A stretch of 64,000 bases of DNA, from positions 8,529 to 72,528 of the forward strand of contig JBGTMH010000080.1 of NCBI GenBank assembly GCA_041743715.1. Direction: 5' to 3'. The notes beneath the pieces are model-generated. The model was not told the origin of the DNA and ran no database searches. It saw nothing but the letters and a program-made list of their open reading frames with translations. This DNA comes from Patescibacteria group bacterium (GTDB taxonomy: Bacteria; Patescibacteriota; Microgenomatia; Levybacterales; UBA12049). This document shows, in pieces, positions 6,724 to 40,985 of the stretch (the first letter of the stretch is position 1; each line of letters begins with the position of its first letter). The translations under genes were made by a program, and so were the position numbers.

Positions 6724-9700
6724 TTATGGAGTTATTGTCCACGTTCCAAATGATTTGAAGGCACTACATGCTGCTCCACCCTGTACATCAGCTGACTTTT
6801 TCGGACCTGTCCCAACTGTCGTCCCGAGGAGAAAATTGTTTCTGAGATAATACATTTTTGCGTCTGTTCCGATAGTTGCACCAAATTGACTATTTGCCTG
6901 ACTGTCATTGTACCAAAGCCTCGCTGTCCCAAGTGGACTCAGAGAGCCAGTACAGGTGGTTCGTGCATATACTTTGATACTCAATTTTGATCCTTGTGGA
7001 AAATCAACTGGGGTGAATGTATTAAAAGGAATTGTCTGTAACTTTGCACTTGAAAATCCACCAAAGCCTACTAATCCTAGATTAACACTATTAATCTGTC
7101 CTGAACTGACTAACGTTGTATCTTTATACGCCTCAGCCTTCAGATCAAACTTTGCTCCTGCTCCGAAAATACCACCGAGTCCTACCCATACTTTTGTAGG
7201 ATTCAAAGACGTAAGTTTGTTTGGTTGATTCTCCTCAACGATAGCAAAGGGTGAAAGAGAGGAGGAAATGCCGACTATTTCATACGTAAATGTACCAGCG
7301 TCAATAAGCGTACTTGTTTGGGTTATATCTTCCCACCCAGAACCGTCATTGTGGAGAAGTCTCGGATCCTGGATTGCATCTTCACCTATATAATGCACGG
7401 TGACAGTGACCGGCCCCGTATATGTTGCTGTTGTTGTTATGTTATAAAACGTATTGAGTGTGCTATATCGTGGCGGTATGGGGCCGTCAGGATTGGAGTC
7501 TAACTCTTCGATCAGGACATAGCCAGGTGAAGTTACCTCACTGAATGAAACGGTGGTATTGCCGATCGTAACTGTCTCTTGCCCGGGTGAAACCTGTGCG
7601 GCATGCACGGTACTGCTGATAGTAAATGTTTGGGTCTTATGCGGTGTTTCTTCAAGTCCGGTATTGTCAACGGACCAGTAGATGATCGTATGTTCTCCTG
7701 CATCGGAGACGGTAAACGGCCCGGTATATGGTTGCTGAGCATTGCTGTCGATTTGATAGTAGGTGTCCTCAACACTAAAGCCTGATGCTGCTGATGCGGA
7801 AAGCGTTACCTGTACTGGATCAGGGTACTCGCCATTCTCAAGAGCGCTTGGGGCTATGTTTGCTGTGGTCGTTGGCTCGTCGTGTGGCGCGGGTGTCGGA
7901 GTTATAGTTGGAGTAGGCGTATTCGTAGGTGGAAATTTAGAATAAAGTTCTGCTGATGCAAGATTGGTACCATTGCTATTTCCTCCTACTGCTAATACTT
8001 GATCATCCGATAATAGTACAGTACTATGATAAACTCGTGCAACATTCATTGGTGTGGTTAGTGACCAAACACCACCGACAGGATCATATAGCTCCGAAGA
8101 AGCAAGTTGTGTCTGTGATATATCTGCAGTAGATCCTCCCGCAACAAGAACACGACCATCTGAAAGCAAGGTAGAGGTCGTATAACGTCGACCAGTATTT
8201 AAGTTTCCAGATGCTGTCCATATTCCAGTAGCTGGGTCATAGAGTTCTGTTAGTGAGGAGGGTGACATTGTTGAACCAACAACAAGCACTTTACCATTGT
8301 TAAGACGAGTCAATGTATGTTCTACTCGTCCTCTTTGCGTAGAACCGGTTTGTGTCCAAGTTCCTGTATTTGGATCATATAATTCTGCGGATAATGCTGT
8401 TGCGGAGGTAGGTCCTCCATTACCTCCGGAAACAAGCACTTTTCCATCTGCAAGGAGAACAGCCCGATGAAAGTAACGAGGTGAACTCATCGAGCCTGTT
8501 AGTGTCCAGGTTTCAGTAGTTGGATCATATATCTCAGATGAAGCGTGCTCAACGCTGATGTTATTAACAATATCATATCCTCCTGCTGCTAATACCCTTC
8601 CATCAGAAAGCAATGTTATTGTAGGTTGCGTACGAGGAACATTCATAGATCCCGTGTACGTCCATGCTCCAGTAGTAGGATTATATAACTCAGCAGCGGC
8701 AAGAACACCTCCATTATCATAACCATAACCTCCTGCAAGGAGCACTTTCCCATTAGCGAGAGTGACTGCTGTGGGAAAATCATTGCGTGCTATATTTACT
8801 GAACCCGTCGCATTCCATACACCAGTTGTTGAATCATAGAGGTCTGTAGTCGTAGTCGCCAGGACATTGCTACTTCCTGTAACAAGTACTTTGTCATTTT
8901 GTAATAAGGCTATTGCAAAACCAGCACGCGATTCATTCATAGAGCCTGTGTACGTCCAGGTTGGATTTGGCGTAAGTGCAGTATAAAGTTCTGCTGTTGC
9001 TAAATGGCGGCCAGAAGTATTTCCTCCGACTGCCAACACTCTATCGTTTGATAATAATATCGCTTCATGGTAAAATCGTGCATCACTAAGGGATGCCGTA
9101 TTTGTCCACGTATCGCTTACAGGATCATACAGCTCAGCAGAAGTGAGATAAAAAGGAGTACCACTATTGCCTGATCCTCCAGTAGCAAGAACACTACCGT
9201 CAGAAAGCAAGGTTGCAGTATGCAAACGTCGCTTATTATTTAAGTCTCCCGCGGCTGTCCATGTACCTGTCACGGGATCATACAATTCTGTTGATGCAAA
9301 GTCGTCACCACCTATATAGCCGCCAACAAGAAGTACTTTCCCATTTGCAAGCAGCGTCGATGTATGTTCGAAACGAGGTGATGTGATAGATCCGGTTGGT
9401 GACCAAGTGCCTGTCGCGGGATCATAAATCTCGGCTGAAGTACGATAGACAAAGGAAGAGCTAGGATTGTCTCTATACGCTCCTCCAACCACTAACACCT
9501 TCCCATCAGAAAGTACTGTCGCTGTGTGTCTGGAGCGTGATGCATTCATGGATCCAGTTGGTGACCATGTATCTGTACTCGGATCATATATCTCTGCTGT
9601 GGAATAGGATAGTTGGTTTGATCTCTCGCCTCCTGTTACTAATATCTTTCCACCAGCAAGGACTGTGGCAGTAGCATATATGCGAGGTTCTGGCATAGAT

Positions 9701-10185
9701 GCAGCGCTCGTCCATGTACCATTACTCGGATCATATAATTCTGACGAAGAAACATGTTCTCCTGAAGAAACCCCTCCGGTTATTAGCACCTTTCCATTAG
9801 GAAGTGTTACAGTTAGGAAGCTTTGGCGGGGAGCATTCATTGCCCCTGTGGTATTCCATGTGCCATTTGTTGGATCATATATTTCTGCTGAAGAAAGTAG
9901 AATTATATCGCCTTCCTCCGTGTGGCTTTGACCTCCAAATACAATTACTTTACCATTTTGTAATAGAGTCGACCCAAAGTTACTACGTCCTTCATTCATA
10001 GAACCCGTATTTGTCCAGTCAGAAGCAGTCTGTGCATATCCGCGGGAATTTATTATCGGTAAAACGAAAAGCATGACTACCAAACTTACCACGACACTGA
10101 GACCAAGGAAATAGGGGGATAACTTATTCTTTGCTATAAACTTAAAAGGAGAAACAGCGTGATTTACTAGTTGTTTTAACTGCAT
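6724..10185 (-). CDS. Giant secreted Kelch-repeat protein P1, with chitobiase-like domain and conserved C-terminal domain
   Basis: N-terminal signal anchor (LSVVVSLVVMLFVLPI). At least 14 Kelch-type blades with the recurring motif SAE(I/L)YDP(x)TGTW(x)xTGSMxxxRxxH(T/E)AxLLxxGKVLVxGG. A PT linker PTNTPTPTITPTPAP is followed by a chitobiase/beta-hexosaminidase-C-like domain (TYYQIDSNAQQPYTGPFTV...IIYWSVDNTG) and then the ~165-aa conserved CTD ending GGAACSAFKSFGTWTITP. Confidence 0.85.
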   Translation of the reverse strand: MQLKQLVNHAVSPFKFIAKNKLSPYFLGLSVVVSLVVMLFVLPIINSRGYAQTASDWTNTGSMNEGRSNFGSTLLQNGKVIVFGGQSHTEEGDIILLSSAEIYDPTNGTWNTTGAMNAPRQSFLTVTLPNGKVLITGGVSSGEHVSSSELYDPSNGTWTSAASMPEPRIYATATVLAGGKILVTGGERSNQLSYSTAEIYDPSTDTWSPTGSMNASRSRHTATVLSDGKVLVVGGAYRDNPSSSFVYRTSAEIYDPATGTWSPTGSITSPRFEHTSTLLANGKVLLVGGYIGGDDFASTELYDPVTGTWTAAGDLNNKRRLHTATLLSDGSVLATGGSGNSGTPFYLTSAELYDPVSDTWTNTASLSDARFYHEAILLSNDRVLAVGGNTSGRHLATAELYTALTPNPTWTYTGSMNESRAGFAIALLQNDKVLVTGSSNVLATTTTDLYDSTTGVWNATGSVNIARNDFPTAVTLANGKVLLAGGYGYDNGGVLAAAELYNPTTGAWTYTGSMNVPRTQPTITLLSDGRVLAAGGYDIVNNISVEHASSEIYDPTTETWTLTGSMSSPRYFHRAVLLADGKVLVSGGNGGPTSATALSAELYDPNTGTWTQTGSTQRGRVEHTLTRLNNGKVLVVGSTMSPSSLTELYDPATGIWTASGNLNTGRRYTTSTLLSDGRVLVAGGSTADISQTQLASSELYDPVGGVWSLTTPMNVARVYHSTVLLSDDQVLAVGGNSNGTNLASAELYSKFPPTNTPTPTITPTPAPHDEPTTTANIAPSALENGEYPDPVQVTLSASAASGFSVEDTYYQIDSNAQQPYTGPFTVSDAGEHTIIYWSVDNTGLEETPHKTQTFTISSTVHAAQVSPGQETVTIGNTTVSFSEVTSPGYVLIEELDSNPDGPIPPRYSTLNTFYNITTTATYTGPVTVTVHYIGEDAIQDPRLLHNDGSGWEDITQTSTLIDAGTFTYEIVGISSSLSPFAIVEENQPNKLTSLNPTKVWVGLGGIFGAGAKFDLKAEAYKDTTLVSSGQINSVNLGLVGFGGFSSAKLQTIPFNTFTPVDFPQGSKLSIKVYARTTCTGSLSPLGTARLWYNDSQANSQFGATIGTDAKMYYLRNNFLLGTTVGTGPKKSADVQGGAACSAFKSFGTWTITP

Positions 10186-12314: not shown

Positions 12315-15300
12315 TTATGGAGTAATCATCCATGTTCCAAAAGACTTGAAAGCACTACAAGCAGCTCCACCTTGGACATCAACTGTCTGTTTGGGACCAC
12401 TTCCTACTGTTGGTGAGAGGACAAAGTTATTAAGCAGATAGTAATTGCTTGTATTCGTTCCAATCGTTGCTCCAAACTGACTATTGACTTGATTATCATT
12501 GTACCAAAGCCTTGCAGTTCCAAGTGGATTTTGGGAACCTGTACAGGCTGTCCGTGCAGATACTTTGATACTGAGCTTTGATCCTTGAGGGAAATCAACA
12601 GGTGTAAAGGCACTAAAAGGAATTGTCTGTAGTTTTGCTCCACTAAATCCGCCAAACCCAAATCCTGGGTCTGCGCTGTTGAGTTGTCCCGTACTGACAA
12701 GCGTTGTGTCTTTATAAGCCTCAGCTTTCACGTCAAATTTTGCACCAAAACCAAAGAAGTTAGGTAATCCAATCCATACTTTTGCAGGACTCAGTACAGT
12801 GAGTTTATCTGGAGTTGGAGTAGGTGTCGGGGTATTTGTGGGGGTAGGAGCTGCGGTTGGAGTGGGTGTATTCGTTGGTGTAGGCGTTGGAGTACTGGTT
12901 GGTACAGGTGCAATACCAAAATTAACAGTGGTATCAGCAGTTAATGGTACTGAAACCGGATTTGTGGTCGTTGCTGTATATCCTGTTGGAACATTGAGAT
13001 CAACGGTATACGAACCAGTGGTGAGGGATGAGAACGCATAGTTACCTGTACTATTTGTAGTATCAGTGTTACTTACGTCTCCTGAGAGCGTTATTGTCGC
13101 TCCTTGATAGTCTGTTTCTCCTGAGTCTTTGACTCCATTTTGATTGGTGTCTGTATAGACGTTACCGTCAATGGTATATGTTGGTACCGGAGTTGGGGTT
13201 GGGGTATTGGTAGGTGTTGGTGTTTCTGTTGGTGACGGTGTCGCGGTAGGCGTAGGTGTCTCAGTTGGGGTCGGGGTTGGAGTACTTGTTGGCACAGGAG
13301 CGATACCGAAGTTTTGTGTTGTATCAGCACTGACAAAAACTATCGCAGGATTTGTCGTTGTTGCCATATACCCGGCAGGAATCGTTAATGTTTCGGTATA
13401 TGTTCCACTTTGCAAATTCGGGAACGCATAGTTGCCTTCTTGATCTGCTGTTGTTGTCTCTCCAGTATCAAGTGTTAGTGTGGCGTCATTGACGCCTGTT
13501 TCTGAGGAATCTTGCACACCATTTTGGTTGGCATCAATATACACGGTTCCTGAAAGAGTATGTGTTGGAATTGGCGTAGGTGTTGGGGTATCGGTTGGAG
13601 TTGGTGTCGGTGTCTCCGTGGGAGTTGGAGTATTTGTGGGAGTAGGTGTACTGGTTGGGGTAGGTGTAGGCATCTCGGTTGGTGTCGGGGTATTCGTAGG
13701 AACAGGAGCAATACCAAAATTTTGCGTGGTATCCTCAGTGAGTGGCACTGTTACTGGATTGGTGGTAGTTGCTATATACCCAGCTGGAACGGAAAGCGTT
13801 TCTGTGTACGAATCTGTTTGCAGATTTGGAAACGTGTAAATGCCATTTGCATCGGTTTCTGTTGACTGTCCTGAATCAAGTGTCAGTGTTGCTCCACTGT
13901 AGCCTGTCTCTCCTGCATCCTGTACACCGTTCTCGTTAGCATCGATATAGACTGTTCCTGTCAGGCTATAAGAAGCTATGGTAAATGGTTTGCTATTTTG
14001 TGATTCTGTTACGCCTGAGTTGTCAACCGACCAATAGACAATGGTATGATTACCATTTCCTGATACGGTAAATGGAGCAGTATATGTTTGCTGTGCTCCC
14101 CCATCTACTTTGTAATAGGTATTAGCAACTGTATATCCAGATGCTGCAGTTGCAGAAAGCGTGACGGTTACAGGATTGGAGTAAGCCCCATCAGAAAAGG
14201 GAGTTGGTGCGAGAGTCGCAGTAGTGACTGGTGGATTATGTGAGTATTGCAATGAAATCACTTCACTCTGATCTGAAGTTACAGTAATATTATTGAGAGT
14301 AAAGGTAGAATAAATGCTCCCACCTGGTGGGGTAGCTGTAAAACTATATGTACTATTTGCATTTGTCGGCAAAAGCCATAAAGTAGTATCGCCGTTTGAA
14401 TCAGTTGCTGGACCAGAAGCATTTGCGCCATAGGATGACCCACCAGATACGTTGGTTATTCCTCCCCCAATTGACAGTCCACCATTATTGATTATCCCAC
14501 TTGGCGGTGAGGTACTGATCACTACGTTGTCTATTGGGTTTCCTTGCATATCTTGTATATGAACACTGACCTTTTTCGCTGGAATTGTAATATCTAAATT
14601 GGTATTTTGAGTTAGAGAATATGGCGTAGCAATGACATTATATGTTTGTGGAGCATTAAGGGATAAATTATTTGCATTAGCGTTAATAGTCAAAGCATAG
14701 GTTCCAGTTGATGCTTGTAAGGAGTAATTGCCTAAAGAATCTGTATTTGTGGTTGCTTGGATTTGTCCTGAAGACTGTAAAGAAACTGTCTGGTTTGATA
14801 GTGGGTTACCAAGCGGATCAAATACATGACCGCTCAATGTAACTGGCTGATTCATAGTTACTGTCTTTTGAGTATTACCAGTAATTGAAATATTAGAAAG
14901 CGTAGTTGTAGTGAAAGTGCTTCCAGCAGGTGTTTTAGCAATTATGTTGTATTTACTTGTAGTATCCGTCGGCAATAACCATAATGTGACATTTCCATTT
15001 ATGTCTGTCTTGGGGCCAGGAGCATTATTGCCATAGATTGATCCACCTGATGCATTCGTTATTCCTTCACCAATAACGAGTGTTCCGTTATTAATGGTTC
15101 CATTTGGACTTGTATTAATTTCTGAATTACTAATGGGACTTCCTGCTGCGTCTTGTACATGAACGTCTACTTTAACAGCAGGAACCGTGAGATTTAAAGT
15201 TGTGTTTTGTGTAAACTCAGTAGCAGAAGAAAAATTAGTAATTTTGTATTCCTGGGGAGCATTCAATGAGAAACTATTATTATTTGCATTTATAATAAGG

Positions 15301-16409
15301 GTATACTTTCCAGATGAAACTTGCATTGAATAATTCCCTGAGTTGTCTGTTGTTGAAGTTGCTACTATCTGTGCAGAGGTTGCTTGTAAAGACACTGTTT
15401 GATTTGGAAGTGGATTACCCAAAGAATCATTTAAATGTCCATTTACAGTTACTGGCTGTGTTAAAGTAATCGTTTTCTGGGTATCAGTTGTAATAGCTAC
15501 ATTATTAAGAGTCGTTGTTGAATAAACACTCCCAAATGGAGGAACAGCAGTAAAGGTATACGTGCTATTTGCATTTGTCGGCAAAAGCCATAATGTTACA
15601 TTTCCTGCAGCATCTGTTTTTGGTCCTGGAGCATTACTTCCATATGAAGATCCTCCTGACCCAGTAGTGATACCACTTCCAAGTGAAAGTCCACCATTAT
15701 TGATAATACTTCCACCTGGTGGCGAAGTATTAAGTTCTACATTACTAATGGGATTTCCTGCAGCATCTTGAACATGTGTAGTAACTTTCTTCACTGGAAT
15801 CGTAATATCTAAAATGGCACTTTGACTAAACGATGTAAAAGGTGTTCTTATCCTGTATGTTTGAGGAGCGTTGAGAGATAAGCTATTATTATCAGCAGAG
15901 AAAAAAAGAGTATATGATGCAGCTGAGACTTGAAAAGAGTAACTCCCATTAGCATCTGTTGTAACATTTGTTTGTGTGGCATCCGAAGCTTGTAATGTCA
16001 CGGTCTGATTCTGGAGAGGATTACCCAATGGGTCAAATAGGTGTCCACTTATAATTATTGATCCTGCAGGGGCGAAAACAAAATTTATAACGGTGTTGGA
16101 GGAAATAGTCCTACTTGGAATATGAATTGGTGCAAAATTGCTTCCGGCAGGCGGAGTCACTTTTATAGAATAAGTTCCTCCTGGAACAATTAAACTATAA
16201 CTACCATCACTATCACTTGTGGTACTATCTACAAGTACATTTGAATTAGCATCATTTACATTTATTGTTGCACCGCTAACCGTACTTCCTGATGAATTTT
16301 TTACCGATCCTGATATAGTAACCGTGTCCGCATGAACACTATCAGCCAAAGATAATCCGAAAAAGCTTAGGATTAAAGTCAAAAATATGACGTTGATAAT
16401 TTTTATCAT
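12315..16409 (-). CDS. Giant secreted multi-module surface protein P2 (1364 aa)
   Basis: Signal peptide MIKIINVIFLTLILSFFGLSLADSVHA. Carboxypeptidase-regulatory-like/Cna-B-like modules, then three ~195-aa internal repeats (VTVNGHLNDSLGNPLPNQTVSLQ...HVQDAAGSPISNSEINTSP...WLLPTDTTSKY). A chitobiase-like domain follows, then three SdrD-B-like modules (GTVYIDANENGVQDAGETGY...) separated by PT-rich linkers, then the conserved ~165-aa CTD. Confidence 0.85.
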   Translation of the reverse strand: MIKIINVIFLTLILSFFGLSLADSVHADTVTISGSVKNSSGSTVSGATINVNDANSNVLVDSTTSDSDGSYSLIVPGGTYSIKVTPPAGSNFAPIHIPSRTISSNTVINFVFAPAGSIIISGHLFDPLGNPLQNQTVTLQASDATQTNVTTDANGSYSFQVSAASYTLFFSADNNSLSLNAPQTYRIRTPFTSFSQSAILDITIPVKKVTTHVQDAAGNPISNVELNTSPPGGSIINNGGLSLGSGITTGSGGSSYGSNAPGPKTDAAGNVTLWLLPTNANSTYTFTAVPPFGSVYSTTTLNNVAITTDTQKTITLTQPVTVNGHLNDSLGNPLPNQTVSLQATSAQIVATSTTDNSGNYSMQVSSGKYTLIINANNNSFSLNAPQEYKITNFSSATEFTQNTTLNLTVPAVKVDVHVQDAAGSPISNSEINTSPNGTINNGTLVIGEGITNASGGSIYGNNAPGPKTDINGNVTLWLLPTDTTSKYNIIAKTPAGSTFTTTTLSNISITGNTQKTVTMNQPVTLSGHVFDPLGNPLSNQTVSLQSSGQIQATTNTDSLGNYSLQASTGTYALTINANANNLSLNAPQTYNVIATPYSLTQNTNLDITIPAKKVSVHIQDMQGNPIDNVVISTSPPSGIINNGGLSIGGGITNVSGGSSYGANASGPATDSNGDTTLWLLPTNANSTYSFTATPPGGSIYSTFTLNNITVTSDQSEVISLQYSHNPPVTTATLAPTPFSDGAYSNPVTVTLSATAASGYTVANTYYKVDGGAQQTYTAPFTVSGNGNHTIVYWSVDNSGVTESQNSKPFTIASYSLTGTVYIDANENGVQDAGETGYSGATLTLDSGQSTETDANGIYTFPNLQTDSYTETLSVPAGYIATTTNPVTVPLTEDTTQNFGIAPVPTNTPTPTEMPTPTPTSTPTPTNTPTPTETPTPTPTDTPTPTPIPTHTLSGTVYIDANQNGVQDSSETGVNDATLTLDTGETTTADQEGNYAFPNLQSGTYTETLTIPAGYMATTTNPAIVFVSADTTQNFGIAPVPTSTPTPTPTETPTPTATPSPTETPTPTNTPTPTPVPTYTIDGNVYTDTNQNGVKDSGETDYQGATITLSGDVSNTDTTNSTGNYAFSSLTTGSYTVDLNVPTGYTATTTNPVSVPLTADTTVNFGIAPVPTSTPTPTPTNTPTPTAAPTPTNTPTPTPTPDKLTVLSPAKVWIGLPNFFGFGAKFDVKAEAYKDTTLVSTGQLNSADPGFGFGGFSGAKLQTIPFSAFTPVDFPQGSKLSIKVSARTACTGSQNPLGTARLWYNDNQVNSQFGATIGTNTSNYYLLNNFVLSPTVGSGPKQTVDVQGGAACSAFKSFGTWMITP

Positions 16410-16484: not shown

Positions 16485-16752
16485 GATTCTTATAAACTTT
16501 CTATAAAAAGCAGGGATACCATATTCTCTATATTTTACTGCTTAAAAGATACTATTTCAGTCTGTATTTTCAATTTTCTATTAATGGAAGGTAAAAGTTT
16601 TGTCTTTTATCTTAACATCGAAAGGTTCTTTTTTTTGAATATGTATGTAGACATAGGAATATAATTCGTTAGGGTTTATCTTATATGCTTTCTCCAGCAC
16701 AACTAAAGCTCCTTGTTTATCATGCTGATTGTATTTCGCAATAGCTAAGCAG
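16485..16752. repeat. 268-bp direct repeat, copy 1 (3' end of GT gene 16581..18353 plus downstream sequence); copy 2 at 20505..20773
   Basis: About 93% nucleotide identity with 20505..20773, e.g. gattcttataaactttctat(a/g)aaaagcagggataccatattctctata...catgctgattgtatttcgcaat. Confidence 0.85.
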
Positions 16753-18353
16753 AACCATAACCCATCAGAAGTTGGATAATCTTCAAGTGCATTCATTATA
16801 AAGGGAACTGCTTGAGGGTCTTTATCATAAAAAACTAGTATTGTCGCGTAATCTATATAGGTATCAATCGCATGTTTATGCATGGGTGCTATTTTGTAGT
16901 CCTTCGCGTGAAGAGCCATTGATAGGTATTTTCTTGCTTTTTCTATATCTCCTAGATTTACCGCATAGACTACTCCTAGGTTATGTAGATTTCCCTCATA
17001 AGGTCTTAATAACACAGATCGTTTGTGATGTTCCAGAGCCTTTGCATGTTCTCCTCTATTGGTATACTCTATACCGAGATTTTGCTGGATGCTATAGTTG
17101 TCATTTATTTGAATATCATGGGTATACAAAGCGATAGCATCATGCCAATCATTATTTCTCAGTATTGTCCTATATGACAAAGAAAAGACAATGAGTACTG
17201 CAAGGATAATAGGTATTGCTTTGTGCTTTGGTAGGTTACCTAGAAGATCTTTGTAGATAATAGCAAGCATACCAAGTAATCCTATTATTGGAAAGTAAAA
17301 CCAGCGATCTGCCACCGTATAATCAAGTGGGTAAATCTGTGAGTGCAAGAAGAGTCCTAAGATAAACCATAGAGTGAAAAAAAGAAATATCTTGAAACTC
17401 TGTTTTCTATGCGCATAAAGATAGTAACCGCAGATTCCAATTAGCGTAAAAAAAGTGAAGTTAACAAGTAAAGGAAAATAAAAAGTAGAAAAATTCAAAG
17501 AGGGAATAGTCCATTGCTGATCAATAGCAAGTGATATCGGAAAGAAAAACGTCTTGATGTAGTAAAAAATAACTATTGGTATATGTGTCAATCGCTCCAA
17601 AAGAGTTAATCCTGCAACAGGAGCTAAAAGACGTGTTGAAAAATCAACTTGCCCTATGAAAAAACGGAAAAAGAGATATACAATAACAACAGATACGCTT
17701 ATAACAAAAAGCTTTACTTTGTTATCTTTGACAAAGAGAACACGATAAATAAACACTAAAGGAATAAACAAAACACCTGTTTCTTTTGTAAGTATTGAGA
17801 GTAGTAAGAACAAGAATATAGTAAACAGGTCACTCTTAGATAATCTCTTCCTTGTAGAAACAAGTAGCGCTACTAATCCAAATAGCAAAAATAAAGGACT
17901 TGTCGTCTGAGCAATATAAGACACTGACTCAACATTTATTGGATGGACGAGAAATAGTAAAGCGGAAAAAAATGCAATTCCACTGTGAAGAAATTTACGA
18001 AAAAATTTGAATATCAATATTGCACAGACGATGTGCAAAATAATTTGTAAAAAATGGTAAAAAAATGAAGCGTTACCGAAAAAGGTATAAAGAAAAGAAA
18101 AGTAAAATACAGGAATTGGACGATATTGTCCTCCAATGTTAAACAGATTCGGTCCGAATGAAAATGGCAAGTCTGCCTGATGGATTAATGGATAATTGAT
18201 AATATATGTTTTATCATCCCAAACAAACCCATTGAAAAGTGTATTGAAGTAAACAATAAAACCAACAATAAAAATAATATGAATTGCTTTAAGTGTAGTT
18301 AAAGGAATAAGTAAATTCTTAAGTGAAAATTCTTCTTGTTCTTTTTCTTGCAT
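16581..18353 (-). CDS. GT-C fold glycosyltransferase, PMT/TMTC-like (family 39-like), with C-terminal TPR repeats
   Basis: About 11 TM segments with loop-1 motif FNGFVWDD (PMT/TMTC DD/DE motif). The C-terminal ~170 aa is soluble and TPR-like (LGIEYTNRGEHAKALEHHKRSVLLRP..., YDKDPQAVPFIMNALEDYP). Confidence 0.65.
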   Translation of the reverse strand: MQEKEQEEFSLKNLLIPLTTLKAIHIIFIVGFIVYFNTLFNGFVWDDKTYIINYPLIHQADLPFSFGPNLFNIGGQYRPIPVFYFSFLYTFFGNASFFYHFLQIILHIVCAILIFKFFRKFLHSGIAFFSALLFLVHPINVESVSYIAQTTSPLFLLFGLVALLVSTRKRLSKSDLFTIFLFLLLSILTKETGVLFIPLVFIYRVLFVKDNKVKLFVISVSVVIVYLFFRFFIGQVDFSTRLLAPVAGLTLLERLTHIPIVIFYYIKTFFFPISLAIDQQWTIPSLNFSTFYFPLLVNFTFFTLIGICGYYLYAHRKQSFKIFLFFTLWFILGLFLHSQIYPLDYTVADRWFYFPIIGLLGMLAIIYKDLLGNLPKHKAIPIILAVLIVFSLSYRTILRNNDWHDAIALYTHDIQINDNYSIQQNLGIEYTNRGEHAKALEHHKRSVLLRPYEGNLHNLGVVYAVNLGDIEKARKYLSMALHAKDYKIAPMHKHAIDTYIDYATILVFYDKDPQAVPFIMNALEDYPTSDGLWFCLAIAKYNQHDKQGALVVLEKAYKINPNELYSYVYIHIQKKEPFDVKIKDKTFTFH

Positions 18354-20834: not shown

Positions 20835-22616
20835 TCAATTATTAAAATAATTTCTAGATCTTTCTATTTTAACGTTTTTATTATTAGTTAAAGCATAATA
20901 AAAATCCGCAGTCTCTGGATCATTGGGATTCAATGCATAAGCATTTTTTATCGCTTCCAAAGCAGCACTATTATGACCAGATTGATATTCTAGGATTGCT
21001 AAATTAAACCAAATTTTATAATTTTTTGGGAACTTTTCTAGAGAACTGACTATAAAACTCTTGGCAATATCGGCATCATAATAATGGGCATACAAGTAAC
21101 TTAAGCTCTCGTAGGCAAAGGGACTACCTGGTTCATTCTTTATCGAAGTCTTTAACACAATCTCTGCTTTAGTAAGCAATACTCTATTTTTATGTTTCTC
21201 CGCCTCCAACATCAAAACTGTACCTAAGCCATACGAATTCATACCATAATAGGGAGCAAGCTTAATGGAACGTTCGAAATATCCTCGGGCTTTGTCATTT
21301 AATCCAGCAAGAGACAAAGCAAATCCACATGAGTTTTCTAAGGTGAAATTATCGTGTGATTGATCTGCATCGTGGCACATTAAGGCCATATTATCTTTAA
21401 AATTCATATTTCTCTCTATTGTTCGAATGGATAAAATTATTGCCAATAGGATAAATACTATCAATAAAACATTGGTTGCATTTTTGGAGTTAACGAAGTT
21501 TTGCAGTACAATTCCGATCATTCCCAAAAGCCCAACTATTGGTAAATAAAACCATCGAGTCGCAACAGTTCCATCTAAAGGAATAAGTTGCAAGTGAAGG
21601 CTCAATCCGGTAACAAACCACAATACAAAAAAAATAAACCAACGAAATTGGATAAAATTTCTCTGATAGAGTATTTTTCCGAGGAAAAAAACTACTGCTA
21701 TAAACAAAGAAATTATTGCAAGAGGTAAATAAAAATTTACAAAACTAATAGACGTTACAACCCAGTCGTAACTTACTGCAAGATTTTTGGGAAATATGAA
21801 TGTTTGCAAATAATAAAAAATTATTAGAGGTATGTTCATTAATCTTTCAAAAAGTGATAACCTACTAATATGAAATTCGTTAGGTCCAGGAAAACCGACC
21901 GCAAGAGTGTGAATAATACTATAAGAAATGATAAATGGTAAGGTATAGATGATTGTTTCTTTTAAACGGTCTTTTCTAAAAAGGAAGATATAGAATATAT
22001 TAATAAAGACGAAAGCAATGCCTGTTTCTTTAGACAAGACAGATAATAGTAATAAGGAAAATACTTTTAGCTCTACATATTTAGATTTTTTTCCACTTGA
22101 GATTAATAATGCCAACACGCCGAAAAAGAAAAACATAACATCTTGTAAATCGGAAATGTATGCTCCCACTTCCTGATTAATTGGATGGACAAGAAAGATC
22201 ACAGAAATGGCAAGTGCCCATTCTTTGCGCAGAAATTTTTTAAAGAGAATAAATACTAATATCGCATTTATAATGTATAAAATTATCTGGAGTAAATGGA
22301 AAAGAAATGCATTTTGACCACCAATGGAATGAATAAGGGTAAATGTCGTTAATAGTAAAGGTTTGTAATAGTCACCTGAAATACCATTACCTTGATTAAA
22401 CGTACTGGTAGTAAAGAAGGTCGGAATATTTGCTGCTGAATGAATACTATTGTTTGTAACTATTTGTCCAAAATCATCAGCTACAAATCCATTAAAAAGC
22501 ACATTGCCGAATACAATAAATCCAACAATAACAATAATGTGAATTGCTTTTAGTGTTGTGAGGGGAACGAAAAACTGTTTTAAAGAAAATTCCTCTTCTT
22601 GTTTATCCTGAAGCAT
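20835..22616 (-). CDS. GT-C fold glycosyltransferase, PMT/TMTC-like, with C-terminal TPR repeats (paralog of 16581..18353)
   Basis: The N-terminus is colinear with 16581..18353 (EEFSLKQFFVPLTTLKAIHIIVIVGFIVFGNVLFNGFVADD). About 11 TM segments. TPR-like C-terminus (YFERSIKLAPYYGMNSYGLGTV..., AALEAIKNAYALNPNDPETADFYYAL). Confidence 0.65.
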   Translation of the reverse strand: MLQDKQEEEFSLKQFFVPLTTLKAIHIIVIVGFIVFGNVLFNGFVADDFGQIVTNNSIHSAANIPTFFTTSTFNQGNGISGDYYKPLLLTTFTLIHSIGGQNAFLFHLLQIILYIINAILVFILFKKFLRKEWALAISVIFLVHPINQEVGAYISDLQDVMFFFFGVLALLISSGKKSKYVELKVFSLLLLSVLSKETGIAFVFINIFYIFLFRKDRLKETIIYTLPFIISYSIIHTLAVGFPGPNEFHISRLSLFERLMNIPLIIFYYLQTFIFPKNLAVSYDWVVTSISFVNFYLPLAIISLFIAVVFFLGKILYQRNFIQFRWFIFFVLWFVTGLSLHLQLIPLDGTVATRWFYLPIVGLLGMIGIVLQNFVNSKNATNVLLIVFILLAIILSIRTIERNMNFKDNMALMCHDADQSHDNFTLENSCGFALSLAGLNDKARGYFERSIKLAPYYGMNSYGLGTVLMLEAEKHKNRVLLTKAEIVLKTSIKNEPGSPFAYESLSYLYAHYYDADIAKSFIVSSLEKFPKNYKIWFNLAILEYQSGHNSAALEAIKNAYALNPNDPETADFYYALTNNKNVKIERSRNYFNN

Positions 22617-30369: not shown

Positions 30370-33174
30370 ATGGATAAAAGCGAAGCAATCACACGACAAG
30401 AGATAATAGATAAACGCCTTGCAAAAGCTAACTGGGATGTAAAGAATCATTTTCAGGTAAAATCTGAACTTGATATATGGTTGGGTGTATCTGATGCTGA
30501 GAATATACAAGTTAACGAATATACTGGTCATCAGTTCGCAGATTATGCCTTACTTGGAGATGATGGCCACCCATTGGCAATTGTAGAAGCAAAAAAGACA
30601 TCAAAAGACGCCCGCATAGGACAAGAACAAGCTCGTCAGTATGCAGAAAATATTAAAAGGATTTCACAAAAAGATATGCCTTTTATTTTCTATACCAATG
30701 GTAATGATATTTACTTTTGGAATTCTGAAAAATACCCTCCTAGAAAGGTTTACGGATTCCCAACAAAAAAAGATTTAGAGAGAATGCTCTTTTTGAGGAA
30801 AAATGAAAAACCACTTTCTCAAGAACTAATAGACCGAGATATCTCAGGACGACCTTATCAGATAGAAGCAATCCGCTCTGTTTTTGAAAACATAGAGAAA
30901 GGGAAAAGAAAATCACTGCTCGTTATGGCAACCGGTACAGGAAAAACGAGAACGTGCGTATCAATGCTGGATGTTCTGATGCGAACAAACAGAGTACAGA
31001 AAGTTTTATTTCTGGTCGATAGAATTGCACTCAAAAATCAAGCACTCGATGCCTTTAGAGAATTTCTTCCTAATGCTCCAGTTTGGCCAAGATTTGGTGA
31101 AACTGAAATTGTAACGGATAGACGTATCTATGCCGCGACATACCCTACAATGCTTAATATTATTGAAAATAAAGACTGTCCTTTAAGTCCGCATTTCTTC
31201 GATATGATTGTTGCAGACGAAAGCCATCGGTCAATTTACAATGTCTATAAAAATATTTTTGATTACTTCGATGCCCTACAACTCGGACTTACCGCAACTC
31301 CAAAAGATGTCGTCGAACACAATACGTTTAGTCTATTCGAATGTGAAGAAGGCATACCGACCTATGCATACTCTTACGAGGAAGCAATAAACAATAAGCC
31401 TCCATACTTATGTGACTTCGAAGTCTTAAAAATTCGCACCAAATTTCAAAAAGAAGGTATTCGAAAAGATACTATTTCCAAAGCAGAACAATTAAAATTA
31501 CTTGCTGAGGGTAAAGAACCTGAAGAAATAAATTATGAAGGGAGTGATATTGAAAAGAAGGTTACGAATAGAGGAACAAACGCACTTATTGTCCAAGAGT
31601 TTATGGAAGAGTCGATAAAAGATGAGAGTGGCACTTTACCAGGAAAAACGATCTTCTTTGCAATGACCATGAAACATGCACGACGGTTGCAAGAAGTTTT
31701 TGACGATTTATATCCTGAGCATAAAGGAAATATAGCTAAAGTAATCGTGTCAGATGATCCTCGTGTCTATGGCAAAGGTGGTCTCTTAGACCAATTCGTT
31801 AATAGTGATTTTCCAAGAATTGCTATCAGTGTCGATATGCTTGATACGGGAATAGATGTTCGCGAACTTGTTAACTTAGTATTCGCCAAACCAGTTTTTT
31901 CATATACAAAATTCTGGCAAATGATTGGAAGAGGCACAAGACTTCTTGAGTCGAAAAAAATCAAACCCTGGTGTAAAGAAAAAGATAAATTCCTGATTAT
32001 GGATTGCTGGGAGAATTTTGATTATTTTGAAATGAACCCAACTGGAAAAACTGAAAAACCTACAAAGCCGCTCCCCGTTCGACTTTTTGAAAGTAAATTA
32101 GAAAAACTAAATATCGCACAGACGCAAAATAATAGTCTGTTAACGCAAAAAACGATTCTTAAACTAAAAGAAGATATTGAAAGGTTGCCACAAAATAATG
32201 TGGTTATATTAGATGCTAAAACAAAACTTGATAAGCTAAATGATACTTTTTGGCAAAATCTTAATGACGATAAGAAGCTTTATCTTCAAAAAGAAATTGC
32301 TCCGCTTATGCGTACACGAACGGGTGAAGATTATAAGGCGATGAGTTTTGAGTTAAAAGTCATAAAGTATTCCCTTACTAAACTGAAATCTGAAGATGAT
32401 AAAAAAGTAAAAACCCTTGAAGAGGTACTCATAGAAATGATTTCTGATCTACCACTAACTGTCAATATTGTCGCAAGAGAAAAAGAATTAATTGAAGACG
32501 TGCTTTATAATAACTACCTTAATAAAGCAACAGATGATGAGCTCGATATCTTAATAGAAAATATTGCTCCCTTAATGAAATTTCGAGAAGAAGGAATTAA
32601 GCCAGACCAAGATTCACTAGACTTACGAGACATTACACATGAAAAAGAATATATTAAATTCGGACCGCAACACGAAAGAATTACCACACATAAATATCGA
32701 GAAAAAGTCGAAGCATTGATCAAAAAACTTGAAAGGGAAAATGATATATTGGTAAAAATAAAAGAAGGAAAAAGCATTACTTCCGAAGAAATAGAAGAAC
32801 TTGCCACAACACTCGCTGAATACGACCCTTATCCTACAGAAGAGAACTTGCAAAAAGCATATGACGCAAGAACAGTAAGATTTATCGACCTTATAAAGTA
32901 TATAATGGGAATAGGCGGACTTGTTACTTTCTCCGAAAAAGTATCAGAAGCATTTGCAGAATTCATCGCTGAACATAATACACTCTCAGCAAAACAAATC
33001 CAGTTTTTACACACGCTACAAACATTCATTATCGAAAACGGCGAACTTTCAAAAAGAGACTTAGTTCGTGAACCATTTACGAAGATACATGCTGATGGAT
33101 TTCTGGGATTATTTGACCAACGCATGCAGTCTGAAATACTGGATCTAACGGAACAAATAACAAATTATGCTTAA
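30370..33174 (+). CDS. hsdR: Type I restriction enzyme R subunit (HsdR)
   Basis: HSDR_N-type N-terminus (ITRQEIIDKRLAKANWDV). SF2 helicase motifs: motif I LLVMATGTGKTRT and motif II VADESHRS (DEAH-like). 934 aa, overlapping hsdM by 8 nt. Confidence 0.85.
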   Translation: MDKSEAITRQEIIDKRLAKANWDVKNHFQVKSELDIWLGVSDAENIQVNEYTGHQFADYALLGDDGHPLAIVEAKKTSKDARIGQEQARQYAENIKRISQKDMPFIFYTNGNDIYFWNSEKYPPRKVYGFPTKKDLERMLFLRKNEKPLSQELIDRDISGRPYQIEAIRSVFENIEKGKRKSLLVMATGTGKTRTCVSMLDVLMRTNRVQKVLFLVDRIALKNQALDAFREFLPNAPVWPRFGETEIVTDRRIYAATYPTMLNIIENKDCPLSPHFFDMIVADESHRSIYNVYKNIFDYFDALQLGLTATPKDVVEHNTFSLFECEEGIPTYAYSYEEAINNKPPYLCDFEVLKIRTKFQKEGIRKDTISKAEQLKLLAEGKEPEEINYEGSDIEKKVTNRGTNALIVQEFMEESIKDESGTLPGKTIFFAMTMKHARRLQEVFDDLYPEHKGNIAKVIVSDDPRVYGKGGLLDQFVNSDFPRIAISVDMLDTGIDVRELVNLVFAKPVFSYTKFWQMIGRGTRLLESKKIKPWCKEKDKFLIMDCWENFDYFEMNPTGKTEKPTKPLPVRLFESKLEKLNIAQTQNNSLLTQKTILKLKEDIERLPQNNVVILDAKTKLDKLNDTFWQNLNDDKKLYLQKEIAPLMRTRTGEDYKAMSFELKVIKYSLTKLKSEDDKKVKTLEEVLIEMISDLPLTVNIVAREKELIEDVLYNNYLNKATDDELDILIENIAPLMKFREEGIKPDQDSLDLRDITHEKEYIKFGPQHERITTHKYREKVEALIKKLERENDILVKIKEGKSITSEEIEELATTLAEYDPYPTEENLQKAYDARTVRFIDLIKYIMGIGGLVTFSEKVSEAFAEFIAEHNTLSAKQIQFLHTLQTFIIENGELSKRDLVREPFTKIHADGFLGLFDQRMQSEILDLTEQITNYA

Positions 33175-34687
33175 TACGACAATAAAATCAGATATAAATC
33201 GCCTTTGGGATAAATTTTGGAGCGGTGGCATCTCTAATCCTTTAACTGCAATTGAACAAATCTCCTATCTCCTCTTCATGAAACGGCTCGATGAAATGGA
33301 TCTGAAAAAGAAACGCGATGCAGAATTTACTGGAGAAAGTTATCAATCAATTTTTGCAGGAAAAGAAAATCTTCGTTGGAGTCATTTCAGAGAAATGGAA
33401 GGCGGAGAAATGCTTACTCACATACAAACACAAGTCTTCCCTTTTCTAAAGTCGCTAGGCAAAGAAGAATCACCATTTGCAAAACATATGAGCAATGCCG
33501 TCTTCATTATTTCCAAGCCATCGCTCATAGTCGAAGCAGTAAGTATTATAGATACTCTCTTTACAGAAATTTCAAAACAATCATCCGAAGGCCAAGGATT
33601 CCAAGACACGCAAGGAGATGTCTACGAGCATTTACTCTCAGAAATAACAAGCGCCGGCAAACTCGGTCAATTTCGTACCCCAAGACATATTATTCAATTA
33701 ATCTGCGAGCTTGTTGATCCCAAACTAGGTGATACAATTTGCGACCCCGCATGCGGCACAGGAGGATTCCTGCTCGGAGCATACCAACACATTCTTACCC
33801 AACATACAAGTAAGGACCATCAACAAACAGATGAAAATGGCCTAACACGCGGACTTGTCGGAGACAACCTTACAGATGAGAGACAATGGAAACAGCTAAA
33901 GGAAAAAACATTCTATGGATACGATATGGACGACAGTATGGTACGAATCGGACTTATGAACCTCATGATGCATGGTATATCCATTCCAAATATTGAGCAA
34001 AAAGATACGTTATCTAAAAAGTACGATGAAGATAATTACTTCGACGTAATCATGGCCAATCCCCCCTTCAAAGGCAGTATCGATAAAGGTGATATCAACG
34101 AATCGTTATCTCTACCTACAACAAAAACAGAATTATTGTTTATCAATCGAATTATAAAATCTCTCAAAATTGGAGGCCGTGCTGGAGTAATCGTCCCAGA
34201 TGGAGTCCTTTTCGGGTCAAGTAATGCACACAAACAAGCCAGAAAAATGCTTCTCAACGACTGTGAACTACAAGGAATTATCTCTATGCCAAGCGGCGTC
34301 TTCAAACCATACGCTGGAGTAAGTACAGCAATTCTCATTTTTGTAAAAGGCGGAGAGACAGAAAAAGTTTGGTTCTATGATATGCAGGCAGATGGATATA
34401 GTCTAGATGATAAAAGAAGCAAAATTAAGGAAAACGATCTGCCAGACATTGTTGAGAAATGGAACTATAGAAAAGAATTAAAAGGAAACACTCGCTCTAG
34501 TATATTTTTCTCCGTAGATAAAAAAACAATTGAGGAAAACGATTTAGACCTGAGTATAAATAGATATAAAGTAACTAAATATAAAGAAGCAATCTATGAG
34601 GATAGCAAAATTATATTAAGTAAAATCAATAAACTTGAAGAAGAAATACAAAAAGGTATATCCGAATTATTAAATGTAAAATTATGA
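33167..34687 (+). CDS. hsdM: Type I R-M N6-adenine DNA methyltransferase subunit (HsdM)
   Basis: HsdM_N-like N-terminus (LWDKFWSGGISNPLTAIEQISYLLFMKRL). SAM motif DPACGTGGFL and catalytic NPPF (IMANPPFKGS). Confidence 0.9.
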   Translation: MLNTTIKSDINRLWDKFWSGGISNPLTAIEQISYLLFMKRLDEMDLKKKRDAEFTGESYQSIFAGKENLRWSHFREMEGGEMLTHIQTQVFPFLKSLGKEESPFAKHMSNAVFIISKPSLIVEAVSIIDTLFTEISKQSSEGQGFQDTQGDVYEHLLSEITSAGKLGQFRTPRHIIQLICELVDPKLGDTICDPACGTGGFLLGAYQHILTQHTSKDHQQTDENGLTRGLVGDNLTDERQWKQLKEKTFYGYDMDDSMVRIGLMNLMMHGISIPNIEQKDTLSKKYDEDNYFDVIMANPPFKGSIDKGDINESLSLPTTKTELLFINRIIKSLKIGGRAGVIVPDGVLFGSSNAHKQARKMLLNDCELQGIISMPSGVFKPYAGVSTAILIFVKGGETEKVWFYDMQADGYSLDDKRSKIKENDLPDIVEKWNYRKELKGNTRSSIFFSVDKKTIEENDLDLSINRYKVTKYKEAIYEDSKIILSKINKLEEEIQKGISELLNVKL

Positions 34688-35838
34688 CCAATGCCGTTAC
34701 CCTCGGGGAAGTATGTGAGTTTCTTGATTATCAAAGAAAACCTGTAACTGCAAAAGACCGAGTCTCAGGTAAATATCCATATTATGGTGCAAACGGGGTT
34801 CAGGATTATGTAGATAGCTATTTATTCGATGATGAACTAGTTTTACTGGCAGAAGATGGTGGACACTTTGATGATCCTTCTAGGGGAGTTGCTTATCGAG
34901 TAAGCGGAAAGTGTTGGGTTAATAATCATGCACATGTATTAAAGCCAAAGAATAATATAGACGTTGATTACCTTTATTATATATTAAGAGAGTATGACGT
35001 TAGGCCATTTATTACTGGTGCGATAATAAAGAAGCTTAATCAGAAAGATGCAAAGAGGATGACGCTATATCTTCCCTCCCTCGAAAAACAAAAAAGAATC
35101 GTAAAAGTTCTCGATCAAGCTGATTCTCTTCGTCAAAAACGCAAGCATTCACTCAAATTTTTAGATGAATATATCAAATCTGTTTTTCTTGAGATGTTTG
35201 GTGACCCAGTAAGTAACTTAAGAAAATGGGAGGTTGCAAAACTTGAAGACTTATTATCAAACATAGATAGTGGTTGGAGCCCTAAATGTTTAGAAGGAAA
35301 GGCTTCAAAGGAAAGCTGGGGAGTACTTAAGTTAAGTGCGATTACAAATTGTAATTATAATGAAGAACAAAATAAGGAACTCCCTAATTCTTTACATCCC
35401 AAACTAAGTATTGAAGTAAAAAGTGGCGATTTACTATTTTCAAGAAAAAATACCTATGAGTTAATTGCAGCGACCGCATTTGTGTTTAATACAAGACCTA
35501 AGTTAATGCTTTCAGATTTAATTTTTCGGTTAAAAACAAAAGATACTTCAGTAATTAGACCTCAATTTCTTTGGAAAACCTTAACACATTCAGGAAAAAG
35601 AAAAGAAATACAACGATTGGCAGGTGGTGCTTCAGGCTCGATGCCTAATATATCAAAAGCAAAGTTAAAAACCATTACCATACCTGTACCACCAATTGAT
35701 TTGCAACTGAAATTTACGCAAATTGTTAACGACACGGAAGTATTAAAAAGAAAAATGCTTAAACAAGCTTCTGATCTAGATTTACAATTTCAGTCACTGT
35801 TGCAAAAAGCTTTTAAAGAAGAATCACATGGAGAATGA
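34684..35838 (+). CDS. hsdS: Type I R-M specificity subunit (HsdS), two target-recognition domains
   Basis: Two TRDs separated by the conserved central region (LPSLEKQKRIVKVLDQADSLRQKRK) and a matching C-terminal conserved helix (IPVPPIDLQLKFTQIVNDTEVLKRKMLKQ). ATGA-type overlap with hsdM. Confidence 0.85.
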   Translation: MTNAVTLGEVCEFLDYQRKPVTAKDRVSGKYPYYGANGVQDYVDSYLFDDELVLLAEDGGHFDDPSRGVAYRVSGKCWVNNHAHVLKPKNNIDVDYLYYILREYDVRPFITGAIIKKLNQKDAKRMTLYLPSLEKQKRIVKVLDQADSLRQKRKHSLKFLDEYIKSVFLEMFGDPVSNLRKWEVAKLEDLLSNIDSGWSPKCLEGKASKESWGVLKLSAITNCNYNEEQNKELPNSLHPKLSIEVKSGDLLFSRKNTYELIAATAFVFNTRPKLMLSDLIFRLKTKDTSVIRPQFLWKTLTHSGKRKEIQRLAGGASGSMPNISKAKLKTITIPVPPIDLQLKFTQIVNDTEVLKRKMLKQASDLDLQFQSLLQKAFKEESHGE

Positions 35839-35994
35839 ACCCTTTTGACCAAATACATCAATATCATGAAGACTTGCCCCGCGCACAATATGGTTGTTGA
35901 AGTTTTAATTATGCCGTTCAACAGACGTGTAAACTTATAAATTTAGCCTCAATATGTATAAATTATCTCCTGTTATGTGTTGTTGAAATTTTAA

Positions 35995-37671: not shown

Positions 37672-37945
37672 GAAAAAACTGTAATATAAAACACGTTCAT
37701 TATACACGACCTTTATCTTGCAAACAATTAACGGCATTGTACAATGCTCAATAATATATAGATAATTTTACTTTATTGATCTATAATTTCTGAAAAGCTC
37801 TTTGAAAAGCTGACGGAGAAAACCTCCGGCCCTTATTAGTGGGGTTAGTTTATCTCACGCCTCCTCCTAAGATCATAAATTTTTGTGATTTTAGGGGGAG
37901 CAGCAGATTAGCTTCCCTGCTATTTGGAAAGGGGGTGATTCAAAA

Positions 37946-38122
37946 ATGGTAAGATTCATCATCTACCAGGATAATGCTAAAGGATATCGATGGCGACTTG
38001 TCGCAGCAAACAACGAAATCGTTGCTTGGGACGAAAGTTATACAACTAAACAAGGGGCCATCAATTCTGCGCAATGGATTCAAGCTCATGCGCATTCAGC
38101 TCCTATCCACGATTTAACTTAA
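37946..38122 (+). CDS. DUF1508 (YegP-like) small protein, 58 aa
   Basis: My own translation reads MVRFIIYQDNAKGYRWRLVAANNEIVAWDESYTTKQGAINSAQWIQAHAHSAPIHDLT, which matches the YegP/DUF1508 repeat (F.IY.D..G.YRWRL.A.NGEI.A.SE.Y..K..A...I). A strong RBS aagGGGGTGAttcaaaaATG precedes it. It is below the ORF-track size cutoff. Confidence 0.65.
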   Translation: MVRFIIYQDNAKGYRWRLVAANNEIVAWDESYTTKQGAINSAQWIQAHAHSAPIHDLT

Positions 38123-38215
38123 AAGGTTAAATCAAACCTCCTCGTCAGCTTTTTGAAGAGCTTAAATAAGTTTGTATATTGGGGAGAAATTAAACAAAAT
38201 GAGATTAAATAACAT

Positions 38216-39220: not shown

Positions 39221-39452
39221 CTAAGCAGCTACAGGGGTGAACTTCCAGGGGTTCTTTTTGTCGTTTGTTTCTACTGCTTTAATTGCCTTCCTGCCTTCTT
39301 CTAAAAGTACTTTCCGAAACAGTTGCAATTATGGAACAATTGGATAACGTTGATTAATAAATACTTAAGATTTGGTTTATGAAACTGATTTCAAACTGAT
39401 ATAAGTATACTAGACAATCAGATGCATCTTATGGTATAAAACTTCTGCAATT

Positions 39453-40903: not shown

Positions 40904-40985
40904 AGATTACAAAAAAAAATTATTTGATACCAATATTGGGACATTGACAGTGTCGTTTGAATACTCTAATATACGGAGACACGAC

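Follow-up and report, generated by a model that had tools for sequence, protein, structure and literature searches.

Sorting signals of the LPXTG and PEP-CTERM types and their like are composed of a signature motif, a hydrophobic helix and a basic tail, as set out in one published account (PMC4617865). Such signals, PGF-CTERM among them, occupy the C-termini of diverse surface proteins, often after Pro/Thr-rich regions. The C-terminal domain of type IX secretion system (T9SS) cargo, such as that of RgpB, is a 7-stranded Ig-like sandwich of ~70-100 aa from Bacteroidota-type hosts, and dockerins are helical, duplicated Ca-binding modules of ~70 aa. Carbohydrate-binding modules (CBMs) are placed behind Pro/Thr-rich (PT) linkers in secreted actinobacterial glycoside hydrolases. 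PLAT and C2 domains dock proteins on lipid surfaces, for which two membrane-binding modes are known, and the C2 domain (PF00168) is essentially cytoplasmic and eukaryotic. The microbial surface components recognizing adhesive matrix molecules (MSCRAMMs) of Gram-positive bacteria, such as SdrD, have a head-stalk-anchor order. The module compared here with these systems was found in a 64-kb stretch of a patescibacterial contig (JBGTMH010000080.1; the whole stretch of 64,000 nucleotides that was analysed is called the window). Among the 46 open reading frames (ORFs) of at least 150 aa in the window, five (genes A to E) end in one common module of ~165 residues, which is referred to as the C-terminal domain (CTD). 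The CTD is a candidate new family within the known kind of terminal attachment or binding modules of surface proteins, and its function is a predicted one.

Each of the five copies is directly followed by a stop codon. Copy A (6727-7221, minus strand; profile E = 4e-99) forms the last 165 aa of protein A, with the stop codon at 6724-6726. Copy B (12318-12812, minus; 7e-99) and copy D (44885-45379, plus; 5e-97) form the last ~165 aa of their proteins, copy C (42714-43208, plus; 2e-96) the last 165 aa and copy E (46184-46681, minus; 1e-96) the last 166 aa. A six-frame scan of the window with a profile of the five copies returned exactly these five matches (E 4e-99 to 2e-96), and no sixth copy was detected at E<=10. 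The positions agree with those of an earlier annotation made from the letters of the window alone (the sequence-only reading), which had put the copies at 75-85% identity; the measured pairwise values were 64-78% for protein and 66-77% for DNA. The same annotation had placed the module behind a Pro/Thr linker in every case. This holds for B, C and D, but the CTDs of A and E follow a non-PT beta domain ending in ...SPFAIVE. The five CTDs agree in 87 alignment columns, two of them Cys (C90 and C152, copy A numbering). The C-termini all read ...CSAFK(S/P)FGTW(T/V/M)(I/T)TP(L), and no hydrophobic stretch, transmembrane segment or basic cluster was found at any of the five; the invariant Cys pair and the lack of a hydrophobic tail had both been correctly noticed. 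Synonymous sites are saturated between the copies (synonymous divergence, dS, 1.2-3.0), and the ratio of nonsynonymous to synonymous divergence (dN/dS) is 0.06-0.16. Hence, the copies are old paralogues under purifying selection and not the product of a recent duplication. The window CTDs are nearer each other (best match 76-79%) than to any foreign copy (<=65%), and their nearest relatives are carried by metagenome-assembled genomes (MAGs) of Patescibacteria and Levybacteria (58-62% identity). Long antisense ORFs run over the CTD coding sequence at 6908-7228 (plus) and 42446-43024 (minus). They were rejected as genes and are regarded as artefacts, which cluster with similar ORFs elsewhere only because the CTD itself is conserved.

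The domains upstream of the CTD were assigned by Pfam matches, and a hydrophobic signal-like segment opens all five proteins. Protein A (gene at 6724-10185, minus; 1153 aa; identical to the database protein P0121) opens with a hydrophobic segment (signal or anchor) at the N-terminus and continues with two arrays of Kelch propellers and an unannotated region of 217 aa up to the CTD. Protein B (12315-16409, minus; 1364 aa; identical to P0122) carries a signal peptide, CarboxypepD_reg-like repeats and three SdrD_B modules with PT linkers before its CTD. In protein C (40767-43211, plus; ~741 aa from the likely start), a signal or anchor is followed by a Kelch propeller, a PT linker, SdrD_B, a second PT linker and the CTD. 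Protein D (43358-45382, plus; 674 aa) has the same order, with a signal peptide and a Vgb-lyase-type propeller at its head. Protein E (46181-50893, minus; 1570 aa; identical to P0126) consists of a signal peptide, DUF7948, an SBBP propeller, a Kelch propeller, SdrD_B, the 217-aa unannotated region and the CTD. The ORF of gene C opens at GTG 40767; the ATG at 40986 has a GGAGA motif 8 nt upstream, and the N-terminus read from it parallels that of A (MQ(L/I)K(Q/E)L...). The start of gene C is therefore probably ATG 40986, and the first 73 codons (40767-40985) are probably not translated. The Kelch, SBBP and Vgb-like propellers on which the sequence-only reading had based its differing upstream architectures were all recovered by Pfam. 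Its description of giant, otherwise different proteins was too strong. At 674-1570 aa the proteins are large, and they are mosaics with common SdrD_B modules and a common 217-aa region.

The mosaic structure was explored further through these shared parts. SdrD_B modules were located at 12906-13178 (minus), 42309-42581 (plus), 44525-44797 (plus) and 47345-47611 (minus). The third copy of B and the copies of C and D are 81-90% identical, above the adjacent CTDs (71-76%), and the SdrD_B-PT-CTD cassette of B, C and D has 72-78% identity over ~340 aa. The higher identity of SdrD_B than of the CTD points to a more recent exchange of the SdrD_B module, or of an SdrD_B-PT cassette, among the genes. 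The second unannotated region of ~217 aa lies just upstream of the CTD in A (aa 773-988; 7222-7869, minus) and in E (aa 1189-1404). Its first ~85 aa (YYxxDG...HTIxYWSVDNxG) are common to A, E and B (aa 729-813 of B). No Pfam match to this region was obtained at E<=1 in A, and only noise was obtained in E and B. The stalk-like parts (SdrD_B and PT linkers) are next to the CTD in four proteins, B to E, whose propellers or other head arrays come straight after the signal peptide.

The CTD was searched against the available family libraries, and its taxonomic extent was evaluated. No relevant match was returned at E<=10 from Pfam-A (2025 copy) or NCBIfam release 20 (June 2026) for three window CTDs and eight canonical CTDs from other phyla. 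The common C-terminus of 82 full-length homologues was free of Pfam assignments, profile searches of all PDB sequences gave only noise (E>=0.27), and full-text literature searches, including searches with sequence-motif strings, found no description of the domain. According to these comparisons, the family is undescribed in every library queried, as the sequence-only reading had supposed in not recognising it, and it is real, widespread and strongly selected. With a hidden Markov model (HMM) run against 1.84 billion cluster representatives, 1,195 clusters (50% identity) were matched at E<=1e-3, 722 at <=1e-10 and 306 at <=1e-30. This extent and the saturated dS leave no room for a similarity confined to one genome through recent duplication, which had been named beforehand as an outcome that would undo the proposal. 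One genome for each GTDB species was scanned in a pattern-seeded search with alignment A3 (A2 being too diverse), and 75 genome loci were found. They belong to Patescibacteria (Levy-, Gottesman- and Saccharibacteria), Methylomirabilota/Rokubacteria, Chloroflexota, many Acidobacteriota and Thermoanaerobaculia, the cultured actinomycete Nonomuraea endophytica DSM 45385, Nitrospirota, Verrucomicrobiota and Gemmatimonadota, together with one MAG labelled Clostridia, one labelled delta-proteobacterium and two archaeal MAGs. None of the 75 is from Bacteroidota. The Methanosarcinales locus is plausibly archaeal, because a Cbf5-type pseudouridine synthase (DKCLD, TruB and PUA domains) adjoins it. The CTDs of the 'Clostridia' MAG CAZJQQ (L028, L032 and L070) are 74-79% identical to Blastocatellia copies, and this MAG may be misclassified or contaminated. 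Several genomes are multi-copy, with at least nine copies in one Acidobacteriota MAG. Of 38 copies compared, 20 have their closest match in their own genome, so that concerted evolution within genomes was rejected as a general rule; Acidobacteriota paralogues are often nearer to copies of other genomes than to one another. The CTD was not found in viral contigs or viral structures, which counts against a phage receptor-binding origin.

The structure of the CTD was predicted with AlphaFold2 from an alignment of 88 sequences with copy A first. The model contained 12 beta strands and was of high confidence (pLDDT 96, pTM 0.90). No match to the PDB was obtained with Foldseek at E<=1e-3. The weak top matches were PI3K C2 domains, lipoxygenase PLAT and synaptotagmin C2, and the TM-scores against C2 were ~0.3. 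The fold is thus predicted to be a beta-sandwich, which is at most distantly PLAT/C2-like; the check by model and structure comparison that had been proposed from the letters yielded a confident sandwich with no close relative in the PDB. The lipoxygenase match recalls PLAT/LH2 (PF01477), the eight-stranded sandwich of lipoxygenase, pancreatic lipase and clostridial alpha-toxin, but no PLAT/LH2 match was obtained at E<=10 among the 11 CTD sequences compared with Pfam-A. The CTD also differs from the C2 domain, since it gave no C2 HMM match and would be extracellular and disulfide-bonded. Both Cys were present in 193 of 227 homologues and both were absent in 33, with a single Cys in only one. 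This co-variation indicates a disulfide and an extracytoplasmic location, and it supports the disulfide that had been suspected from the window copies.

Conservation in the family peaks in three loops, and it extends across phyla, archaeal copies included. Loop 1 (GLKNSDDVG) follows strand 2, loop 2 (GGSSGFNNA) follows strand 4, and loop 3 ((C)xGSGH(N/R)SG) leads into TARLW(Y/F)ND. The loops scarcely differ between Nonomuraea, Acidobacteriota and Methanosarcinales and are kept in all paralogues within a genome. In the window copies and in P0123-P0129, all three are replaced jointly by Gly/Phe/Leu-rich versions, namely GL(P/G)(N/G)FFG(F/A)G, PG(F/L)GFGGF(S/T)(S/G)A and CTGS(L/Q)(S/N)P(L/I)G, and two Methylomirabilota copies have intermediate loops. 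In copy A, GLGGIFGAGAK (7150-7182, minus) takes the position of the near-invariant GLKNSDDVG loop; the corresponding segments are at 12738-12770 in B, 42753-42785 in C, 44927-44959 in D and 46610-46642 in E. Accordingly, the motifs listed in the sequence-only reading are present in the window copies but are partly lineage-specific, and the family hallmarks KNSDDVG, GSSGFNNA and GSGHxSG are absent from these copies. In the model, loops 16-23, 48-59 and 89-98 and the disulfide-linked segment 148-155 would all lie at one end of the sandwich, because the strand directions alternate. A joint switch of all three would be expected of loops that form one site. Moreover, the same loops recur whatever the cargo or the phylum, and this uniformity argues for one ligand rather than many targets. 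The polar and acidic loops of most lineages suggest a metal-assisted site, and the Gly/Phe/Leu-rich loops of the window copies suggest a hydrophobic insertion or contact.

The position of the CTD within its proteins was also evaluated. The end of the profile was reached by 252 homologues; the protein stops with the domain in 181 of them and one residue later in 52, so that 0-1 residues follow in 233 (~92%). In the genome loci, the domain forms the end of ORFs of 400-2,300 aa with very few exceptions. The expectation that it would always be C-terminal in other genomes was nearly borne out; P0013 has a 55-aa Cys-rich tail after the domain, and two further exceptions, P0229 and L032, are taken up below. 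A signal peptide opens most complete homologues. Their cargo is diverse and rarely enzymatic, and the partner domains include PKD, CarboxypepD_reg, Kelch, Big_1, SdrD_B, PD40, Sortilin-Vps10 and YNCE/lactonase propellers. Many apparently stand-alone copies had come from a word-index listing that held only proteins <300 aa, and most of them were found by exhaustive search and at the loci to be fragments of large ORFs. ORFs within +-10 kb of the 75 loci, together with those of the window, were clustered, and no gene family recurred across taxa beside the CTD genes; the companion protease or transporter that had been proposed as a check was hence not seen in these neighbourhoods. The best recurring neighbour family reached 9 of ~50 assemblies and was generic (ABC transporter, TPR or response regulator), and one syntenic block is confined to Acidobacteriota/Thermoanaerobaculia. 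A neighbour family that seemed to occur in 24 assemblies was rejected, since its members proved to be ORFs that lie inside the very genes that carry the CTD, some of them antisense to the domain.

On this evidence, the CTD is tentatively read as a common, non-covalent, envelope-proximal attachment foot for many exported proteins, a reading that is favoured while still falling somewhat short of probable. The CTD would be an autonomously folding, non-catalytic extracellular beta-sandwich of ~12 strands, with one disulfide in most members. Many different Sec-exported proteins, built of propeller, PKD, Ig-like and transthyretin-like arrays, would carry it at their extreme C-terminus. It would bind one ligand non-covalently through the loop cluster at one end of the sandwich, and this ligand would most probably be located on the envelope of the producer itself, either as the head-group of a membrane lipid or as a ubiquitous component of that envelope. 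A stalk of PT linkers and SdrD_B modules would then present the head domains. A foot is favoured because the loops are invariant, the stalk elements adjoin the CTD, the nearest structural analogues dock on lipids, and acidic loops are contrasted with Phe-rich ones. The order of parts in B to E is the head-stalk-anchor order of MSCRAMMs such as SdrD. Furthermore, the acidic and Phe-rich loops may mirror the two membrane-binding modes of PLAT/C2 domains, and this analogy is offered as a lead. A more specific version would make the CTD the address tag of a new, envelope-independent display system common to candidate phyla radiation (CPR) bacteria, Acidobacteriota, actinomycetes, Chloroflexota and archaea, namely a metal-assisted PLAT/C2-like anchor, peripheral to the membrane or envelope, that would keep whole sets of large propeller and Ig-repeat proteins on the cell and would have switched to Phe-rich insertion in a Levybacteria-like lineage; this version is rather unlikely.

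Several observations weigh against a foot. The adjacency of the loops is deduced from the strand order of the model. A single ligand is hard to name across monoderm, diderm, CPR and archaeal envelopes, and in diderms a Sec-exported protein must still cross the outer membrane. In A and C, the hydrophobic segment at the N-terminus is ~21 residues long and could be an uncleaved membrane anchor, in which case the CTD would be the distal tip. In P0229 (1,921 aa) the domain is N-terminal and directly follows the signal peptide, and in L032 it is internal with a 196-aa tail behind it. L077 (5001-5483) is an apparently stand-alone CTD without a signal peptide, with only 9 in-frame nt upstream, and a gene of divergent orientation precedes it. 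L076 (5001-5507) likewise lacks a signal peptide and is preceded by a gene of divergent orientation; the vestigial Ig-like sequence before its CTD has no start codon, and this copy resembles a truncated remnant.

A distal tip of the adhesin or lectin/CBM kind is possible but doubtful. In this case the N-terminus would be held at the cell, or the protein would be released, and the CTD would meet a host cell, a polysaccharide, or a mineral or other particle. The layout of cargo, PT linker and terminal disulfide-bonded sandwich with the conserved W12, W103 and W161 resembles that of CBM2-type proteins, but the cargo of the CTD is mostly non-enzymatic, so that the logic of an enzyme plus CBM fails, and no CBM or lectin HMM in Pfam matched the CTDs. 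The polar loops, with their Asn, Asp, Ser and His residues, are of the kind typically found at metal-assisted glycan sites. CBMs and target-binding adhesin tips tend to diversify, whereas the loops of the CTD are near-invariant across phyla, habitats and paralogues rather than tuned to a substrate as in CBM2-type modules. The long N-terminal segments of A and C may act as signal anchors and would suit a tip, as would the N-terminal domain of P0229 and the life of CPR bacteria, which are thought to live attached to other cells. The stalk elements, however, adjoin the CTD and not the N-terminus.

A secretion or sorting recognition domain, through which proteins would be exported or attached by a dedicated machinery and possibly relieved of the domain, as with the T9SS CTD or pre-peptidase C-terminal domains, is improbable. 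The strictly terminal position, the many paralogues per genome on unrelated cargo (five in the window) and the strong conservation of the module relative to most cargo would suit a sorting domain. Like the present module, the T9SS CTD is a folded beta-sandwich that terminates many unrelated secreted proteins of one genome. It is smaller, however, and belongs to a phylum that contributed none of the loci, and no match to Por_Secre_tail (Pfam/TIGRFAM) or to other sorting-domain models was obtained at E<=10. Compared with LPXTG, PEP-CTERM, PGF-CTERM, GlyGly-CTERM and MYXO-CTERM signals, the CTD is a globular domain of 165 aa that has neither the hydrophobic stretch nor the basic tail. Together with the lack of SLH, LysM, CWB2 or GW matches on the CTDs and on the full-length window proteins in Pfam, this agrees with the sequence-only reading, by which the module was not of the LPXTG, PEP-CTERM, T9SS or SLH kind. 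To our knowledge, a disulfide-bonded domain of 165 aa is far larger than any known sorting signal. Known sorting systems are also envelope-specific, whereas the CTD occurs in CPR bacteria, Nonomuraea, Chloroflexota, Acidobacteriota, Nitrospirota and archaea. An autonomous binding module is therefore preferred to a sorting signal, because the domain is globular without a transmembrane or basic tail, is found with every envelope type, has no machinery recurring nearby, and occasionally stands in other positions, as in P0229 and L032. The early proposal of a sorting, anchoring or secretion module was right about a terminal module on divergent cargo, which extends well beyond this genome; the sorting and secretion part does not suit a folded, tail-less domain without a recurring neighbour, and anchoring or shared ligand binding, its other alternatives, fits better.

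A docking module of the dockerin-cohesin kind, or an oligomerisation module such as a TNF/C1q-like trimer, has a similarly small chance. A conserved terminal module on divergent cargo in one genome, often after a PT linker, would be the pattern of the cellulosome, and the greater closeness of the window copies to one another than to foreign copies would suit a partner particular to the genome. The Acidobacteriota paralogues, often nearer to foreign copies, speak against such co-evolution as a general feature. No repeated receptor-like gene and no cohesin-like partner was seen in the neighbourhoods examined, and the all-beta CTD model, without a Pfam match, has nothing of the small, helical, Ca-binding dockerin. 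The regions upstream of the CTD are neither collagen-like nor coiled coil, so that nothing calls for trimers. A stable capping or folding domain with no specific function of its own, which the shuffling of 3' cassettes had spread along with SdrD_B and PT linkers, would suit the mosaic proteins, the cassette of B, C and D and the closer likeness of SdrD_B than of the CTDs, but it is very improbable, since near-invariant polar loops across phyla and a dN/dS of ~0.1 with saturated dS point to a selected site in a family that spans bacteria and archaea.

If the CTD is an envelope-proximal anchor, it would explain how very different envelopes, including those of CPR bacteria, keep such proteins on the cell, and it could provide a compact display tag. 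Because a cultured organism, Nonomuraea endophytica DSM 45385, carries the domain, the question can be approached experimentally. The RefSeq name of its homologue WP_184959794.1 refers to the SdrD_B domain only. In uncultured groups, above all CPR/Patescibacteria and Acidobacteriota, the annotation of large surface and secreted proteins mostly stops at their generic repeats. The family is unmodelled in Pfam and NCBIfam and has no solved relative detectable by sequence, and its definition would improve the annotation of proteins such as WP_184959794.1.

The surroundings of the five genes were those of an ordinary chromosome, with recA, recX, RNase Y, metK, an ABC transporter, a type I restriction-modification system and other defence genes. 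The window has a GC content of 39.9% and one tRNA-Pro. Its GC and gene content, together with the nearest CTD relatives, point to a Levybacteria-like CPR bacterium. Two membrane proteins with C-terminal TPR repeats (16581-18353 and 20835-22616, both minus), one of which has a PMT_2-type glycosyltransferase match, adjoin the PT-linker proteins and might O-glycosylate the Pro/Thr linkers. A defence-type island at 30370-40310 lies between the surface-protein genes. It comprises type I restriction-modification hsdR/M/S (30370-35838), a Schlafen/AlbA_2 protein (35995-37737, minus), RhuM (38216-39220) and an EVE plus NucS/PDDEXK-like nuclease (39453-40310). A DUF559/MTES_1575-type endonuclease-like gene (45403-46128, minus) is placed between genes D and E. 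Further along, a gene with a LigD 3'-phosphoesterase domain (51002-51490, minus) and a HerA/TrwB/TraG-like coupling-protein ATPase gene (58796-61042, minus) may be remnants of mobile elements.

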